Translations under genes and position numbers: made by a program | From: Escherichia coli | GTDB lineage: Bacteria; Pseudomonadota; Gammaproteobacteria; Enterobacterales; Enterobacteriaceae | Strand: one strand, 5' to 3' | Length of the DNA: 64,000 nucleotides | NCBI RefSeq assembly: GCF_003018255.1 | Contig: NZ_CP027440.1 | Shown here: positions 1,090-55,738 of the stretch, in pieces | How the letters are laid out: each line of letters begins with the position of its first letter | Numbering within the stretch: the first letter of the stretch is position 1 | Notes under the pieces: generated by a model | Told to the model about the DNA's origin: nothing | What the model saw: the letters and a program-made list of their open reading frames with translations, nothing else | The model's database searches: none

Positions 1090-1803
1090 ATGATTAAAAA
1101 TTTGCCGCAAATAGTGTTGTTGAATATTGTCGGCCTCGCGCTGTTTCTTTCCTGGTATATTCCCGTTAATCATGGATTCTGGTTGCCGATTGATGCGGAT
1201 ATTTTTTATTTTTTTAATCAGAAACTGGTCGAAAGTAAGGCCTTTTTGTGGCTGGTTGCATTGACCAACAATCGCGCTTTCGACGGTTGTTCACTGCTGG
1301 CGATGGGAATGTTGATGCTGAGTTTCTGGCTGAAAGAAAACGCCCCAGGCAGACGACGTATCGTGATTATTGGTCTGGTCATGCTATTAACTGCAGTGGT
1401 ATTAAACCAGCTGGGTCAGGCATTAATTCCTGTAAAACGGGCCAGCCCAACATTGACTTTTACCGATATTAACCGCGTCAGCGAACTGCTCTCTGTTCCC
1501 ACGAAAGATGCCTCACGAGATAGCTTTCCCGGCGATCACGGTATGATGCTGCTTATTTTTTCGGCATTCATGTGGCGTTATTTCGGCAAAGTTGCAGGCC
1601 TTATCGCCCTTATTATTTTTGTGGTTTTTGCGTTTCCCAGAGTAATGATTGGCGCACACTGGTTTACTGACATCATTGTCGGTTCGATGACCGTGATATT
1701 GATCGGTTTGCCCTGGGTGTTGCTGACGCCATTAAGTGATCGATTAATCACCTTTTTTGACAAATCACTACCGGGAAAAAACAAACATTTCCAAAACAAA
1801 TAA
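1090..1803 (+). CDS. lpxT: lipid A 1-diphosphate synthase / undecaprenyl-pyrophosphate phosphotransferase (PAP2 family)
   Basis: ORF track gives 1054-1803; internal ATG at 1090 (MIKNLPQ...) gives 237 aa, the recalled length of LpxT/YeiU; polytopic membrane protein with PAP2-like motifs (PGDHG, HWFTD). Confidence 0.85.
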   Translation: MIKNLPQIVLLNIVGLALFLSWYIPVNHGFWLPIDADIFYFFNQKLVESKAFLWLVALTNNRAFDGCSLLAMGMLMLSFWLKENAPGRRRIVIIGLVMLLTAVVLNQLGQALIPVKRASPTLTFTDINRVSELLSVPTKDASRDSFPGDHGMMLLIFSAFMWRYFGKVAGLIALIIFVVFAFPRVMIGAHWFTDIIVGSMTVILIGLPWVLLTPLSDRLITFFDKSLPGKNKHFQNK

Positions 1804-1817
1804 CTCACAGTAATTAA

Positions 1818-1860
1818 CATCATCAGGGTTATTTTTATAGTGAGGATAATCCTGATGATG
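1818..1860 (+). other. 15-bp stem / 13-nt loop hairpin just downstream of lpxT stop; the 3' arm covers a GAGGA Shine-Dalgarno-like motif and tandem ATG codons
   Basis: catcatcagggttat (1818-1832) pairs with ataatcctgatgatg (1846-1860) with one G-U wobble; no U-tract follows. Confidence 0.5.
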
Positions 1861-2214
1861 CGCACCGTGCTTTCATCCATCGCGCGCAAAAATCATTCTC
1901 TAAGTAAATGAATGGATTGCATGCGTTTCACTCAATCGTACTTTAATTGACCAATCCCGTTTATTAACTTTCTGTATCACTTTTTCTTATAAAGAATCAT
2001 GTAAAACCGCTCGCCAAGACCGCACCAATCGGGTAATCTCGAACTCGTTTTGCCTCGGCGGTAGATTATCCTCACAGCATATAATTTTGTGCGTTAGTCC
2101 ACAGATTTGGCCTTAAGGAATTGTTTCAACATGCCCAGGTAATTAGTCTCGTGTCGCTTGGCATTTTTTTATAACGATATTTGTCGTTAAGGACTTCAAG
2201 GGAAAACAAACAAC

Positions 2215-2781
2215 ATGGTCAAATCTCAACCGATTTTGAGATATATCTTGCGCGGGATCCCCGCGATTGCAGTAGCGGTTCTGCTTTCTGCATGTAGTGC
2301 AAATAACACCGCAAAGAATATGCATCCTGAGACACGTGCAGTGGGTAGTGAAACATCATCACTGCAAGCTTCTCAGGATGAATTTGAAAACCTGGTTCGT
2401 AATGTCGACGTAAAATCGCGAATTATGGATCAGTATGCTGACTGGAAAGGTGTACGCTATCGTCTGGGTGGCAGCACTAAAAAAGGCATCGATTGTTCTG
2501 GTTTCGTACAGCGTACATTCCGTGAGCAATTTGGCTTAGAACTTCCGCGTTCGACTTACGAACAGCAGGAAATGGGTAAATCTGTTTCCCGCAGTAATTT
2601 GCGTACGGGTGATTTAGTTCTGTTCCGTGCCGGTTCAACAGGACGCCATGTCGGTATTTATATCGGCAACAATCAGTTTGTCCATGCTTCCACCAGCAGT
2701 GGTGTTATTATTTCCAGCATGAATGAACCGTACTGGAAGAAGCGTTACAACGAAGCACGCCGGGTTCTCAGCCGCAGCTAA
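2215..2781 (+). CDS. mepS: NlpC/P60 murein DD-endopeptidase lipoprotein (Spr/MepS)
   Basis: 188 aa; lipoprotein signal (LLSAC), catalytic Cys in DCSGF, His in GRHVGIY; matches MepS length. Confidence 0.95.
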
Positions 2782-2828
2782 TAAACCGTTTGGATGCAAT
2801 CCCTTGGCTATCCTGACGAGTTAACTGA

Positions 2829-2859
2829 AAGCACTGCTTAGGCAGTGCTTTTTTGTTTT
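2829..2859 (+). terminator. rho-independent terminator of mepS
   Basis: aagcactgc / gcagtgctt stem with 4-nt loop followed by TTTTTTGTTTT. Confidence 0.75.
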
Positions 2860-2961
2860 CATTCATCAGAGAAAATGATGTTTCCGCGTCTTGATCCAGG
2901 CTATAGTCCGGTCATTGTTATCTTTTAAATGTTGTCGTAATTTCAGGAAATTAACGGAATC

Positions 2962-4518
2962 ATGTTCATACGCGCTCCCAATTCTGGACGTAAGCTCCTG
3001 CTTACCTGCATTGTTGCAGGCGTGATGATTGCGATACTGGTGAGCTGCCTTCAGTTTTTAGTGGCCTGGCATAAGCACGAAGTCAAATACGACACACTGA
3101 TTACCGACGTACAAAAGTATCTCGATACCTATTTTACCGACCTGAAATCCACTACTGACCGGCTCCAGCCGCTGACCTTAGATACCTGCCAGCAGGCTAA
3201 CCCCGAACTGACTGCCCGCGCGGCGTTTAGCATGAATGTCCGTACGTTTGTGCTGGTGAAAGATAAAAAAACATTCTGTTCATCTGCGACTGGTGAGATG
3301 GACATTCCACTAAAAGAATTGATTCCGGCGCTCGACATTAATAAAAATGTCGATATGGCGATCTTACCCGGTACGCCGATGGTGCCGAACAAACCCGCAA
3401 TCGTCATCTGGTATCGCAACCCGTTGTTGAAAAATAGTGGCGTGTTTGCCGCGCTGAATCTCAATCTGACGCCTTCTCTCTTTTATAGTTCACGGCAGGA
3501 AGATTACGATGGCGTCGCCCTCATTATTGGTAATACTGCGCTATCTACCTTTTCTTCACGTTTGATGAACGTTAATGAATTAACCGACATGCCGGTCCGT
3601 GAAACTAAAATTGCGGGCATTCCTCTGACCGTTCGGCTTTATGCAGATGACTGGACATGGAACGATGTGTGGTACGCATTTTTACTGGGTGGCATGAGTG
3701 GAACTTTCGTTGGACTTCTCTGCTATTACCTGATGAGTGTGCGTATGCGCCCAGGCAGAGAAATCATGACCGCCATCAAGCGCGAACAATTTTACGTGGT
3801 GTATCAACCGGTGGTGGATACACAAGCTTTGCGGGTAACGGGCCTGGAAGTACTGCTACGCTGGCGGCATCCAGTAGCAGGAGAAATCCCCCCGGATGCC
3901 TTCATTAACTTTGCCGAAGCGCAAAAGATGATTGTGCCACTGACTCAGCACCTGTTTGAGTTGATTGCCCGCGATGCCGCAGAATTAGAAAAAGTACTGC
4001 CGGTAGGCGTCAAATTTGGCATTAACATTGCGCCGGCCCACTTGCACAGCGAAAGCTTTAAAGCGGATATCCAGAAACTGCTCACTTCCCTGCCCGCACA
4101 CCATTTCCAGATTGTGCTGGAAATTACCGAGCGCGATATGCTGAAAGAGCGAGAAGCCACACAACTCTTCGCCTGGCTGCATTCGGTCGGCGTAGAAATT
4201 GCTATTGATGACTTCGGCACCGGGCACAGCGCGCTTATCTATCTTGAGCGTTTTACGCTCGATTATCTGAAAATTGATCGTGGATTTATCAACGCCATCG
4301 GTACGGAAACGATCACTTCACCCGTACTTGACGCGGTGCTGACGCTGGCGAAACGCCTCAATATGCTGACGGTTGCTGAAGGGGTCGAAACGCCAGAACA
4401 GGCACGATGGCTAAGCGAACGCGGCGTTAATTTCATGCAAGGCTACTGGATTAGTCGCCCGTTACCGCTGGACGATTTTGTTCGCTGGCTGAAGAAACCG
4501 TATACGCCGCAGTGGTAA
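2962..4518 (+). CDS. rtn: membrane-anchored EAL-domain c-di-GMP phosphodiesterase (Rtn/PdeN)
   Basis: 518 aa; N-terminal TM segment, CSS-type periplasmic region, EAL-like motif (EVLLRW) and downstream DDFGTG motif. Confidence 0.9.
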   Translation: MFIRAPNSGRKLLLTCIVAGVMIAILVSCLQFLVAWHKHEVKYDTLITDVQKYLDTYFTDLKSTTDRLQPLTLDTCQQANPELTARAAFSMNVRTFVLVKDKKTFCSSATGEMDIPLKELIPALDINKNVDMAILPGTPMVPNKPAIVIWYRNPLLKNSGVFAALNLNLTPSLFYSSRQEDYDGVALIIGNTALSTFSSRLMNVNELTDMPVRETKIAGIPLTVRLYADDWTWNDVWYAFLLGGMSGTFVGLLCYYLMSVRMRPGREIMTAIKREQFYVVYQPVVDTQALRVTGLEVLLRWRHPVAGEIPPDAFINFAEAQKMIVPLTQHLFELIARDAAELEKVLPVGVKFGINIAPAHLHSESFKADIQKLLTSLPAHHFQIVLEITERDMLKEREATQLFAWLHSVGVEIAIDDFGTGHSALIYLERFTLDYLKIDRGFINAIGTETITSPVLDAVLTLAKRLNMLTVAEGVETPEQARWLSERGVNFMQGYWISRPLPLDDFVRWLKKPYTPQW

Positions 4519-32824: not shown

Positions 32825-32958
32825 CACTAAAAGAGCAGGTAAAATTATCTGAATGTTCTTTAAGTTATTCATAAAGCAAATTAATAAATCTGATGAATAT
32901 GTTAACCTTCAGCGACATCATCGGTGAAAACCTATAAATGAAGAAGGAAAGCAAAAAA

Positions 32959-33447
32959 ATGAAGACCATTCTACCTGCAGTATTGTTTGCCGCTTTCGCC
33001 ACCACTTCCGCCTGGGCGGCAGAAAGCGTCCAGCCACTGGAAAAAATCGCACCTTATCCACAAGCTGAAAAAGGCATGAAGCGCCAGGTGATTCAGTTAA
33101 CCCCGCAAGAAGATGAATCTACCCTGAAAGTAGAACTGTTAATCGGCCAGACGCTGGAAGTCGATTGCAATTTGCATCGTCTCGGCGGGAAGCTGGAAAG
33201 CAAAACGCTGGAAGGCTGGGGCTATGATTATTATGTCTTTGATAAAGTCAGTTCCCCGGTTTCGACGATGATGGCCTGCCCGGATGGCAAGAAAGAGAAG
33301 AAATTTGTCACCGCGTATCTGGGCGATGCCGGAATGCTGCGTTATAACAGCAAGCTGCCGATCGTGGTGTATACGCCAGACAATGTAGATGTGAAGTACC
33401 GCGTCTGGAAGGCGGAAGAGAAAATTGACAACGCGGTAGTTCGCTAA
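32959..33447 (+). CDS. eco: ecotin, periplasmic serine protease inhibitor
   Basis: ORF track 32938-33447; ATG at 32959 ([20 protein letters not shown]) gives 162 aa. Confidence 0.95.
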
Positions 33448-33461
33448 ACTGCTGTGAAGTG

Positions 33462-33592
33462 CTGCAACCGCCAGGTCGGATAAGGCGGTTACGCCGCATC
33501 CGACATCTAACGCCCGAGCCGGTTGCCTGATGCGACGCTGACGCGTCTTATCTGCATACGCCACATCCGGCATACCATGCCGGATGTGGCAC
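33462..33592. repeat. cluster of REP palindromes (BIME-like) between convergent eco and mqo
   Basis: gtcggataaggcg...cgccgcatccgac; tgcctgatgcgacgctgacgcgtcttatc; ccacatccggcat...atgccggatgtgg. Confidence 0.7.
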
Positions 33593-33596
33593 ATCA

Positions 33597-35255
<1,659 letters not shown>

Positions 35256-41566: not shown

Positions 41567-41599
41567 ACAAAACCTTCACTCGCAACTAGAATATCTTCC

Positions 41600-41692
41600 G
41601 CTATCATCATTAACTTTATTTATTACCGTCATTCATTTCTGAATGTCTGTTTACCCCTATTTCAACCGGATGCCTCGCATCCGGTTTTTTTT
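41600..41692 (+). ncRNA. micF: MicF antisense sRNA (represses ompF)
   Basis: GCTATCATCATTAACTTTATTTATTACCGTCATTCATTTCTGAATGTCTGTTTACCCCTATTTCAACCGGATGCCTCGCATCCGGTTTTTTTT; divergent from ompC; ends in hairpin plus U-tract. Confidence 0.9.
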
Positions 41693-44692: not shown

Positions 44693-45343
44693 ATGAACAA
44701 TATGAACGTAATTATTGCCGATGACCATCCGATAGTCTTGTTCGGTATTCGCAAATCACTTGAGCAAATTGAGTGGGTGAATGTTGTCGGCGAATTTGAA
44801 GACTCTACAGCACTGATCAACAACCTGCCGAAACTGGATGCGCATGTGTTGATTACCGATCTCTCCATGCCTGGCGATAAGTACGGCGATGGCATTACCT
44901 TAATCAAGTACATCAAGCGCCATTTCCCAAGCCTGTCGATCATTGTTCTGACTATGAACAACAACCCGGCGATTCTTAGTGCGGTATTGGATCTGGATAT
45001 CGAAGGGATCGTGCTGAAACAAGGTGCACCGACCGATCTGCCGAAAGCTCTCGCCGCGCTGCAGAAAGGGAAGAAATTTACCCCGGAAAGCGTTTCTCGC
45101 CTGTTGGAAAAAATCAGTGCTGGTGGTTACGGTGACAAGCGTCTCTCGCCAAAAGAGAGTGAAGTTCTACGCCTGTTTGCGGAAGGTTTCCTGGTGACCG
45201 AGATCGCTAAAAAGCTGAACCGCAGTATCAAAACCATCAGTAGCCAGAAGAAATCTGCGATGATGAAGCTGGGTGTCGAGAACGATATTGCTCTGCTGAA
45301 TTATCTCTCTTCTGTGACGTTAAGTCCGGCAGATAAAGACTAA
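44693..45343 (+). CDS. rcsB: Rcs response regulator RcsB (REC + LuxR-type HTH)
   Basis: ORF track 44648-45343; ATG at 44693 (MNNMNVIIADDHPIVLFG) gives 216 aa. Confidence 0.95.
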   Translation: MNNMNVIIADDHPIVLFGIRKSLEQIEWVNVVGEFEDSTALINNLPKLDAHVLITDLSMPGDKYGDGITLIKYIKRHFPSLSIIVLTMNNNPAILSAVLDLDIEGIVLKQGAPTDLPKALAALQKGKKFTPESVSRLLEKISAGGYGDKRLSPKESEVLRLFAEGFLVTEIAKKLNRSIKTISSQKKSAMMKLGVENDIALLNYLSSVTLSPADKD

Positions 45344-45346
45344 TCA

Positions 45347-45428
45347 CCTGTAGGCCAGATAAGACGCGTCAGTGTCTTATCTGGCATTTGCACGGATTGC
45401 CGGATGCGGCGTAAACGCCTTATCCGTC
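45347..45428. repeat. REP elements between convergent rcsB and rcsC
   Basis: ggccagataagacgcgtcagtgtcttatctggc and gccggatgcggcgtaaacgccttatccg palindromes. Confidence 0.7.
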
Positions 45429-48278
45429 CTACGATTCCCGCGATTTCCTGACCCTCTCGGCATATACCGTCAGCGTCTGTTTTATCACATCCAGCGTTAC
45501 CGGCTTCGACAGGCAGCTGTCCATACCGGACTCCAGACACCGCTGCTTCTCTTCAGCCAACGCATTAGCAGTTACTCCGATTACCGGCAACGTCAGTCCC
45601 AACTGACGAATGCGTTGCGTCAAGCGGTAACCATCCATATTTGGCATGTTGACGTCGCTAAGCACGATATCAATATGATTCTTGCTAAGTACATTAAGCG
45701 CATCGACGCCATCATTCGCGGTTTTACATTGATAGCCCAACGATCCCAACTGATCTGCCAGCAGACGCCGGTTAATCGGATGATCATCCACGACCAGAAT
45801 CATCATATCGTCATTATCGCTGACCGCTTTGTCCGTTAACGGCAGAGCGTTAGCAGGATCGTCGCTCTCCATCTCGATCAAATAAATACGCGCCAACAAT
45901 GCCGGTAGCTCATGCGGGGCAGCCACACTGTGTACCCACTCTCCTGGCGCTTTCTCCAGCGGAATACCAATATGGCGACGACAGAAGGTCACAACCGCTC
46001 TACCCTGCCATTTTTTGCTCACTACCTCGTCAGTGATTAACACATCTTCGGGAGTCGGTTCCTGCCCTTCGTATGTTGTAACGACGATGCCGCTGCGCTG
46101 CAAACTGGTTTCCAGGAACTGACAGAGCGACGCATTGCGGACCGCCAGCCAGCAACGTTTACCACTCAACCCTTCCACGCCTTTTTTCTGCGGGTACTGA
46201 GCGCCGTACAACGGAATACGCACGGTAAACTGGCTGCCCATTCCCGGTTCTGAATCTACCGAGATGTCGCCGTCCATCATGCTGATCAGTTTTTCACAAA
46301 TCGCCAGACCCAGACCGGTCCCCTGGAAGTTACGCTGTACGCCCGTTCCGACCTGGAAGAAGGGATCAAACAAGCGCACCACTTCTTTCGCCGGAATCCC
46401 TACGCCGGTATCGCGAACACGGATAGAGAGATAATCGCCATCAGCGCGAACATGCAGAACTATACAGCCGGTATCGGTGAATTTTATGGCGTTACTCAAC
46501 AGGTTGGAGATGACCTGCTGTAAACGCATCGGGTCGCCATTTAAGGCCACTGGCACATCCGGTTCAATAAAGCAGTACAAGCCTAGCTGCTTGCGTACCA
46601 CCAGCGGTAAATAGTTGGCGGTGATGTGGTTCATCACTTCACGCGGTGAAAACTCACGCGGTTCGATCTTCAACTGTTCCGATTCAATCTTCGAGAAGTC
46701 GAGAATATCGCTGATAATTTTCAACAACAGGCTGGAAGAGTTGTTCATTGCCGTCACCAGACGATCGACGCCTTTCGGTAACTCTTTGGTTTGCAACAGA
46801 TCCAGGTTACCGATAATGCCATACAGCGGCGTTCGCAGCTCATGACTGACGGTGGCAAGGAACATCGATTTTGACTGGCTCGCCTGTTCCGCTGCTTGTG
46901 CCATCTCCTGCAACGACTCTTCCATCTTCACGCGCGAAGAAACATCCACCAGCACACAAATGGCCACGTTTTCATTACGATAGCGCGAATGGACGAAGCT
47001 GATTTGCAGGTTGGTATTGTTGCTGGTCAGGACATCAACAAAATTGACCTGCTGCCCACAGATAATTTGTGTCAGCCGTTGGCGGTCCTCATGCGTAAGC
47101 ATATTGAGATAGGTATGCGCCAGTTCGTTACTTAAAATATTGACGCCATCAGCGGTACGCAAAATGCAGATACCCACTGGCGCGGAGGCGACAATCTTGC
47201 GATTAAACTGCTCATGTTCTTCCAGTCGCAGGGCGTCGCTTTCCGCCGGAATGAAAATACGCCGCTCGTACATCCGCGCGAGAGTAAACAATGCAGCTCC
47301 GGCAAGCACATTCAGCAAAATTGCGTTAAGGATCAACATGCGAATGCGTTCCAGCACCTTATCAACCGGCACCGAATACACGATGCTTAGCGATGAGGGT
47401 GGCAGATTTTTCTTCAGCACCAGCTCCCGGAACCCTTCCGTATAGCCAAACCAGGAGCGTTCCTGCATCCAGCGAGGATCGCCCTTAATTTTGCTTTCTG
47501 GTCCGGTAAGCGAAATCAGGGTATGACCATTTTCATCAAGAATGGTAACCCCCATCGGCAACGTACCAGGTAAGAAAAAGTTCTCCATCCGGATGGTCTG
47601 CTCGACACCCAAAAGCGCCTGCAACCGGTTCGCCAGATAAACTGGCGTCAAGGCGTAAAAATACCCGACGCCAGGGCGCGGACCTTCGCTGATCCAGTAG
47701 AGGTTACTGCCACTATCATCTTGTGGTGCATTTCGATATTTATTAATGCGTTCATGCAAAGCTTTTAACGCGGTATCGCGTTCCACTGGCATATCACGCA
47801 GACCGAAATTGGCCATGCAGAGGTTATCGCTGCCGATTAAAAATACCCGGTTGAGATCGTAAGCCGCAGAAAAATTATCGCGCCAGTAGCGCATAAACCA
47901 CGCCAATGACTCCAGAGAACCTCGCCAGGTGTTACTCATTGCGGAACAATCAGAGTCAGCAAATAGCGGTTCAAACGCAGGCACATCCGTCTGCGTTTCT
48001 CGTCCACGCGGGGAAAGCACACCGTTTTCTGCCGATAAGCGATTTTCAGCTATGTACTTCAGCTCTTTCATCACATCAGAGGTGCGTTGAATAAAGCGCT
48101 GAGCCTGATCGGAACTCAGATTAAATTCCTGACGAATTTCCGATTCTCGCTGATGTAACGCATTAACGATGTAAAAAACGGATGAAAAAGCAATCAACAG
48201 CCAGAGCACTAACGCCAATGCTCTGAACATGTAGCGCGAGGCTTTCAGGGTTGTACGAAAAGAAGCAAGGTATTTCAA
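45429..48278 (-). CDS. rcsC: hybrid sensor kinase RcsC
   Basis: 949 aa; TM segments, H-box SHELRTP, ATPase domain, C-terminal receiver domain. Confidence 0.95.
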   Translation of the reverse strand: MKYLASFRTTLKASRYMFRALALVLWLLIAFSSVFYIVNALHQRESEIRQEFNLSSDQAQRFIQRTSDVMKELKYIAENRLSAENGVLSPRGRETQTDVPAFEPLFADSDCSAMSNTWRGSLESLAWFMRYWRDNFSAAYDLNRVFLIGSDNLCMANFGLRDMPVERDTALKALHERINKYRNAPQDDSGSNLYWISEGPRPGVGYFYALTPVYLANRLQALLGVEQTIRMENFFLPGTLPMGVTILDENGHTLISLTGPESKIKGDPRWMQERSWFGYTEGFRELVLKKNLPPSSLSIVYSVPVDKVLERIRMLILNAILLNVLAGAALFTLARMYERRIFIPAESDALRLEEHEQFNRKIVASAPVGICILRTADGVNILSNELAHTYLNMLTHEDRQRLTQIICGQQVNFVDVLTSNNTNLQISFVHSRYRNENVAICVLVDVSSRVKMEESLQEMAQAAEQASQSKSMFLATVSHELRTPLYGIIGNLDLLQTKELPKGVDRLVTAMNNSSSLLLKIISDILDFSKIESEQLKIEPREFSPREVMNHITANYLPLVVRKQLGLYCFIEPDVPVALNGDPMRLQQVISNLLSNAIKFTDTGCIVLHVRADGDYLSIRVRDTGVGIPAKEVVRLFDPFFQVGTGVQRNFQGTGLGLAICEKLISMMDGDISVDSEPGMGSQFTVRIPLYGAQYPQKKGVEGLSGKRCWLAVRNASLCQFLETSLQRSGIVVTTYEGQEPTPEDVLITDEVVSKKWQGRAVVTFCRRHIGIPLEKAPGEWVHSVAAPHELPALLARIYLIEMESDDPANALPLTDKAVSDNDDMMILVVDDHPINRRLLADQLGSLGYQCKTANDGVDALNVLSKNHIDIVLSDVNMPNMDGYRLTQRIRQLGLTLPVIGVTANALAEEKQRCLESGMDSCLSKPVTLDVIKQTLTVYAERVRKSRES

Positions 48279-55695: not shown

Positions 55696-55705
55696 TCAAT
55701 AAAAA

Positions 55706-55738
55706 CACCCGATAGCGAAAGTTATCGGGTGTTTTCTT
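55706..55738. terminator. bidirectional rho-independent terminator between convergent atoB and yfaP
   Basis: cacccgata-gcgaaagt-tatcgggtg hairpin flanked by A-run and T-run. Confidence 0.7.

Follow-up and report, generated by a model that had tools for sequence, protein, structure and literature searches.

A total of 584 REPs are recorded in the literature for Escherichia coli K-12. A conserved GTAG tetranucleotide at the foot of the palindrome is a feature of these repeats, and BIMEs are bound and cleaved by TnpA(REP), a reaction in which both the GTAG foot and a mismatch in the stem are required (Ton-Hoang et al. 2012). REP pairs mobilised by TnpA(REP) have been described as the REPIN/RAYT system, in which the paired REPs are inverted and carry GTAG feet. 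Variation in tandem BIME number from strain to strain has also been described already and is a property of the BIME-2 type.

The closest counterparts of the loci analyzed here are REP161, the eco/mqo BIME-2 of K-12 MG1655, and REP162, the K-12 element between rcsB and rcsC. Both names are taken from the supplement of Harris et al. 2026, which marks which of 306 published bidirectional terminators of convergent genes lie in REPs. REP161 consists of six tandem 113-bp units in 714 bp, and its terminal hairpin (K-12 positions 2305063-2305108) is listed in that supplement as the eco:mqo bidirectional terminator. REP162 contains two Z2-Y pairs in 199 bp, with the Z2 hairpins of both pairs listed as bidirectional terminators. 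For the K-12 eco>-<mqo element, a BIME-2, 6 gyrase cuts are also on record (Espeli and Boccard 1997).

Two further systems are related in structure. The bidirectional terminators mapped by SEnd-seq (Ju et al. 2019) are, like the palindromes described below, hairpins without U-tracts between convergent genes; in the model of Wang et al. polymerases are paused by such hairpins, which fixes the place where those arriving from opposite sides collide and terminate. Two of the hairpins reported here have K-12 counterparts on the published list. REP325 (yjdM-yjdN in K-12; Rfam naRNA4, RF02564), an array of six Y-Z2 repeats that share the Y-linker-Z2 architecture, acts as a partly Rho-dependent terminator and as an mRNA stabiliser (Harris et al.), but lies between tandem genes at another locus.

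REP elements in the analyzed window

The window is the whole stretch of E. coli DNA that was analyzed, 64 kb in length (contig NZ_CP027440.1). Exactly five REPs, and no other, were found in it with profiles built from K-12 units only (E-values from 1e-13 to 2e-6), and all five sit at the rplY/yejK, eco/mqo and rcsB/rcsC junctions, each of which (3/3) is a convergent gene pair. A head/tail consensus scan of the same 64 kb recovered four of them (15125-15158, 33471-33504, 45350-45385 and 45399-45432). The initial annotation had placed REP-type palindromes at these three convergent junctions and had regarded them as ordinary E. coli extragenic repeats. Both statements were borne out: the coordinates from the consensus scan and the profiles are the same as those given before or differ by a few bases, the five REPs match the Y or Z2 types, and unit-by-unit alignment with K-12 agrees with these assignments and with a pairing of the BIME-2 type. 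The description of all three sites as clusters does not hold, as rplY/yejK contains a lone REP.

Chance formation of palindromes in GC-rich intergenic DNA has only the small size of the elements in its favour. The consensus scan gave four REP-like matches against a mean of 0.14 in shuffled sequences (n=50), the profile E-values reach 1e-13, and not one perfect hairpin of at least 12 bp was seen in 20 shuffles; an origin by chance is therefore extremely improbable, and the alignments place the units in the K-12 Y and Z2 families far above chance. We consider it highly probable that the three sites belong to the E. coli REP/BIME family and are placed where convergent gene pairs share their 3' regions, and that they act by the mechanism proposed below from K-12 data. 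These elements and loci are already known (REP161, REP162 and the lone REP), and only small details of the alleles depart from the family.

All REP units lie between the stop codons of the flanking genes with the exception of the Y foot at rcsB/rcsC, which covers the rcsC stop and one base of the last sense codon. An internal stem bubble appears on both strands in the folds of all three Y units. The GTAG/CTAC foot is intact in both rcsB/rcsC units and mutated in the other three of the five REPs. Short queries containing a REP match 2-10 places per genome, with five copies inside the 64-kb window. The two REP pairs are inverted, with Y on the plus strand and Z2 on the minus strand at eco/mqo, and Z2 on the plus strand and Y on the minus strand at rcsB/rcsC; both arrangements are those of BIME-2. 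A BIME-1 assignment (RIP/RIB; Z1 and Y with a long L linker containing an IHF site) was rejected, as the second units are of Z2 type and the IHF core WATCAANNNNTTR is absent from all three intergenic regions. The tandem repetition of BIME-2 does not occur in the window, where a single unit is found at eco/mqo and at rcsB/rcsC, and the window carries the minimal allele of both loci.

Inverted pairs with GTAG feet are also the form of the REPIN/RAYT system, but in the window the foot is mutated in both eco/mqo REPs and in the rplY/yejK REP, and the copies at these two junctions should therefore be poor substrates for TnpA(REP), as judged from their feet. The K-12 TnpA(REP) gene is located outside this part of the chromosome.

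The eco/mqo intergenic region

The intergenic region between the eco stop (33445-33447) and the mqo stop, TGA (33597-33599), is 149 bp long and contains, in order, a 23-nt spacer, a Y REP, a 16-nt linker, an inverted Z2 REP and a perfect palindrome. The spacer (33448-33470, plus strand) lies directly 3' of the eco stop and corresponds by homology to the spacer between units in the K-12 array, as seen in the alignment with the six K-12 units. The Y-type REP (33471-33507, plus strand) is an inverted repeat with a fold of about -20 kcal/mol and gives the strongest profile match (33473-33507, E 1.2e-13); comparison across alleles shows that its foot is CCAG rather than GTAG in this lineage. The Y-Z2 linker (33508-33523, about 16 nt) is without an IHF core motif. 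The Z2-type REP (33524-33560, minus strand) matches its profile at 33524-33552 (E 8e-10) and has a degenerate foot, GTATGCAG in place of GTAGGCCTG, with GTAT for GTAG, as has the last unit in every E. coli allele examined. Its palindrome is imperfect on both strands and its stem is weak (-14.5 kcal/mol). When the whole intergenic region was folded, three hairpins formed on both strands (z-scores -5.7 and -5.2), and a simple consensus scan gave no hairpin-plus-T-run terminator in this region on either strand.

The locus, the genes, the Y and Z2 units, the spacer, the linker and the terminal hairpin are the same as in REP161. The differences are the number of units (one 113-bp unit in 149 bp in the window against six tandem 113-bp units in K-12), the Y foot (CCAG against GTAG), the terminal stem (14 pairs against 18 perfect pairs) and the mqo stop (TGA against TAA). 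The MG1655 record (NC_000913.3, 2301000-2308000) annotates no repeat features in the 714-bp eco-mqo cluster, so that the six-unit array would escape a comparison based on annotation only.

Loss of GTAG from the foot would put the unit out of reach of the transposase and was considered as a cause of the single unit at eco/mqo. It was ruled out because four other one-unit alleles keep GTAG, and because Escherichia sp. E1V33 has a CCAG foot in the first unit of its array of three. As both feet of the unit in the window lack GTAG/CTAC and the Z2 stem is weak, the effect of the region may come mainly from the terminal hairpin and only to a small extent from the REP part.

The Rfam naRNA4 model matches the eco/mqo unit at 57.3 bits, below its gathering score of 59.5, and the rcsB/rcsC unit (45353-45429, minus strand) at 70 bits; all six K-12 eco/mqo units are above the gathering score. 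These matches raise the question of a nucleoid RNA gene, in which the Y-linker-Z2 sequence would be transcribed and processed to a small RNA of the naRNA4 kind, which would bind the protein HU and condense the chromosome. The original proposal concerned REP325, whereas the eco/mqo unit occurs only once here, and the Rfam model describes a generic Y-Z2 unit. Later work gives the proposal no support, and with the Rfam match as its only starting point we find a nucleoid RNA at these junctions very unlikely. The matches are in line with the assignment of both pairs to BIME-2.

Two minor observations concern the flanking genes. The longest eco frame (32938-33447) encodes 169 amino acids and is so annotated in strain Rb-50, while K-12 and many other strains annotate eco as 162 amino acids from the second ATG; this is a difference in start-codon annotation and not a feature of the sequence. 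The last mqo codons (33603-33613, CGCAATATCCG) resemble a REP half-site; their complementarity with the Y REP is 82% in its 5' arm (33477-33487). No profile match points to an old REP in these codons, and the likeness is probably due to chance.

The hairpin next to the mqo stop

The last element of the eco/mqo region is a perfect palindrome (33560-33590) with a 14-bp stem and a 3-nt loop, found by an inverted-repeat search; it folds at -27.8 and -29.2 kcal/mol on the two strands and is the longest perfect hairpin in the window. This palindrome is a locus-specific hairpin and not a REP. A reading as a diverged REP was rejected: the Y profile fails (E 2.7), the stem is perfect without an internal mismatch, and the element is single-copy. 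One arm is 75% like the 3' half of Y. The initial annotation had counted at least three palindromic units at eco/mqo, the last abutting the mqo stop codon. There are indeed three hairpins with the last near the stop, but the third is not a REP and 6 nt separate it from the stop codon.

In the mqo-sense RNA, two G.U pairs lengthen the terminal stem to 18 bp, ending 2 nt from the stop, whereas in the eco-sense RNA the same two positions are C.A mismatches. The mqo frame ends in two successive in-frame stops before the hairpin (33591-33599), which are UGA UGA in the window and UAA UGA in K-12. The bases that differ from K-12 here convert two Watson-Crick pairs of the extended stem into the G.U pairs of the mqo-sense and the C.A mismatches of the eco-sense RNA.

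The terminal palindrome was found in 5414 of 5426 complete E. coli genomes (at least 90% identity), with a median of one place per genome. Compensatory base changes in the hairpins were not seen among the alleles, which contain single changes only (a loop-closing T-to-A change and a CC insertion). A first scan of species-representative genomes with the terminal palindrome gave no match, perhaps because the loop-closing base is not the same in all E. coli alleles. With a relaxed palindrome pattern, the only match among the species-representative genomes was in Escherichia sp. E1V33.

The position of this hairpin allows for a role in translation. A stable hairpin no more than 15 nt from a stop codon might stall the terminating ribosome, leading to mRNA cleavage, tmRNA rescue and a lower yield of the upstream protein; such a brake could apply to mqo, rcsB and rcsC alongside a role at the 3' end. 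According to Liang, Rudd and Deutscher 2015 (summary in PMC12306157), translation is down-regulated by REPs less than 16 nt from a stop codon, and the distances in the window are of this kind for mqo (2-6 nt past the stop), for rcsB (foot at 6 nt, stem at 10 nt) and for rcsC, where the stop is inside the foot. The great stability of the mqo hairpin (-29 kcal/mol) and the successive stops UGA UGA point in the same direction. However, the mqo hairpin is not a REP, and the REPs of eco (27 nt) and yejK (about 19 nt) are too far from their stops. On balance a translational brake is unlikely, and a function in setting the 3' ends of the transcripts remains the preferred reading for the hairpin.

The rcsB/rcsC and rplY/yejK intergenic regions

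The region between the rcsB stop, TAA (45341-45343), and the rcsC stop (45429-45431) is 85 bp long in the window. It contains a Z2-type REP (45350-45386, plus strand; profile E 5e-7; fold -25.3 kcal/mol) with an intact GTAG foot (45350-45353), a linker of about 11 nt (45387-45397) without an IHF core motif, and an inverted Y-type REP (45398-45432, minus strand), which was found by the consensus scan and by its profile (45401-45433, E 2e-9). The Z2 starts 6 nt past the rcsB stop with its first paired base 10 nt past it, and forms an uninterrupted stem of 14 pairs on the plus strand, being interrupted on the minus strand only. The rcsC stop (TAG on the minus strand) lies inside the CTAC foot of the Y unit (45429-45432). 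In the initial annotation the REP element ended at 45428; it is present as described there but extends to 45432 and overlaps the rcsC stop codon.

This locus is the same as REP162, and in both the Z2 lies 6 nt past the rcsB stop and the Y foot holds the rcsC stop, the TAG of the conserved GTAG foot serving as the stop in K-12 too (positions 2528-2531 of the extracted K-12 locus). Against the two Z2-Y pairs in 199 bp of REP162, the window has a single pair in 85 bp that resembles the first K-12 Z2 joined to the last K-12 Y.

The rplY gene ends at 15039 and the yejK stop, TAA, is at 15178-15180, giving an intergenic region of 138 bp, as in K-12. A canonical terminator that is not a REP (15053-15086), made of an A-tract, a hairpin and a T-tract, contains a 12-bp perfect stem and folds at -20.8 and -18.1 kcal/mol on the two strands; its hairpin (15056-15083) with the A and T tracts is separate from the REP. 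The K-12 counterpart (2282816-2282846) is listed as the rplY:yejK bidirectional terminator with no REP label (Harris et al. supplement). The lone Y-type REP (15125-15159, plus strand; profile match 15127-15159, E 1.6e-6) lies between this terminator and the yejK stop, and its foot is GCAG rather than GTAG, the same as in K-12. The REP is identical to that of K-12, with two substitutions in the intergenic region outside it, and in 5423 of 5426 genomes the region is colinear along the full query.

Variation among E. coli genomes

The one-unit form of eco/mqo aligned end to end in 3449 of 5424 matching genomes (about 64%). The number of units was read from the gap length between the joined flanks in an evenly spaced sample of 59 genomes, in which thirty seven have one unit, one has two, three have three, three have five, thirteen have six and two have seven. 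Eight alleles were confirmed by sequence, with 1, 1, 1, 2, 3, 5, 6 and 7 units. At rcsB/rcsC, one pair was found in thirteen and two pairs in forty six of 59 sampled genomes; these proportions, like those at eco/mqo, are rough, as the samples include many related laboratory strains. The window thus has the common state at eco/mqo and the less common state at rcsB/rcsC. That REP copy number varies between strains, as claimed earlier, is correct for eco/mqo (1 to 7 units) and rcsB/rcsC (1 or 2 pairs), while rplY/yejK is invariant; compared with K-12, the window has fewer copies at two of the three junctions and the same at rplY/yejK. The unit number at eco/mqo and at rcsB/rcsC is a possible simple typing marker.

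The sixtieth sampled genome (E. coli 2017-02-2CC, NZ_AP027764.1) contains a copy of IS621 (IS110-family) inside the Z2 REP foot of the eco-mqo BIME. The junction reads CTTATCAGGCCT / IS621 / ACACCGCTG (locus positions 1230-3000 of the extract), with one unit on the eco side of the insertion and three on the mqo side. Insertions of this kind may explain some of the 49 matching genomes in which the flanks could not be joined.

In Escherichia sp. E1V33 the eco/mqo layout is as in the window, with three units, and GTAG is intact in the foot of the Z2 beside the terminal hairpin. The first E1V33 unit (locus positions 415-527) matches the first-unit sequence of the window including the CCAG foot. 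As E1V33 shares the layout, the arrangement occurs outside named E. coli too. The eco/mqo region of the window is 100% identical to that of strain Rb-50, and the flanks are identical to those of strain DETEC-S792. The sequence 33300-33750 shows at least 99% identity to only 4 of 5424 matching genomes and 95-97% to most others. This divergence, together with the E1V33 match, suggests that the strain belongs to a divergent lineage or has imported a segment of such a lineage.

The wide variation in unit number among the sampled genomes would also be expected of selfish or neutral repeats, that is, of remnants mobilised by TnpA(REP) that are harmless at convergent gene ends and change in number by neutral recombination or slippage with no regulatory effect. 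TnpA(REP) acts on BIMEs, the foot is mutated in three of the five units in a manner that looks like decay, and the IS621 copy sits inside the eco-mqo BIME of another strain. Selfish or neutral repeats are less easily reconciled with the near fixation of the rplY/yejK REP and the mqo terminal hairpin in about 5400 genomes, with the coincidence of the K-12 counterparts with mapped transcript ends and gyrase cuts, or with the higher expression of convergent gene pairs with REPs across the genome (Harris et al.). We therefore regard a purely neutral origin as somewhat unlikely, and favour a function of the elements at the 3' ends of the convergent genes.

Transcript ends, gyrase cleavage and unit number

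We propose the following mechanism from the K-12 data. The palindromes, transcribed from either side, would form stable RNA hairpins without U-tracts. These hairpins would pause RNA polymerase and set the point at which converging polymerases collide and terminate, and by blocking 3'-to-5' exonucleases they would define and protect the 3' ends of the eco, mqo, rcsB and rcsC mRNAs. The functional evidence comes from K-12, with its six-unit eco/mqo allele, whereas the window allele has one unit, and it is from these data that we infer termination and stabilisation in the strain of the window. The initial annotation had attributed terminator and stabiliser activity to the repeats. Published K-12 data on the counterpart hairpins at eco/mqo and rcsB/rcsC are in agreement, but at rplY/yejK the mapped terminator, also on the SEnd-seq list, is the canonical hairpin and not the REP. 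Against a stabilising role in general, cited K-12 work found no genome-wide increase in mRNA half-life for genes with a REP at their end.

As DNA, the Y/Z2 unit is likely to be a site of gyrase binding and cleavage. In K-12, 11, 7, 2 and 5 gyrase cleavage sites were found at eco>-<mqo under four drug conditions, with Y units cut more often than Z2 units. The one-unit allele is expected to have one gyrase site and one REP pair, with the terminal hairpin kept. Changes in the number of units would arise when the 113-114-bp repeats recombine or slip, or possibly through TnpA(REP).

The K-12 eco/mqo BIME-2, the example with six gyrase cuts, is a minority expanded allele, about two thirds of the complete genomes having the one-unit form. 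Results on gyrase, termination and REP RNA therefore need a check of the unit number before they are transferred to other strains; beyond this and a good annotation, the significance of the elements is small. A more speculative and improbable extension is that the non-REP hairpin is a translation-coupled element which sets the output of Mqo through ribosome stalling and fixes the mqo 3' end, and that the number of BIME-2 units (1 to 7) is a heritable dial on eco/mqo expression and local supercoiling. If so, K-12, whose six-unit version is the only one to have been studied at this site, would be unlike the majority of natural E. coli.

Other features in the window

The window also contains, at 55702-55735, a perfect hairpin of 13 bp that carries A and T tracts (AAAACACCCGATAGCGAAAGTTATCGGGTGTTTT), and its sequence matches the K-12 bidirectional terminator atoB:yfaP:yfaQ (2327296-2327335; Harris et al. 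supplement). Three Rfam matches above the gathering score were also found in the window, namely the L25 ribosomal-protein leader upstream of rplY (14708-14733), a tRNA (18449-18522) that is likely proL as in K-12, and the MicF small RNA (41599-41692).
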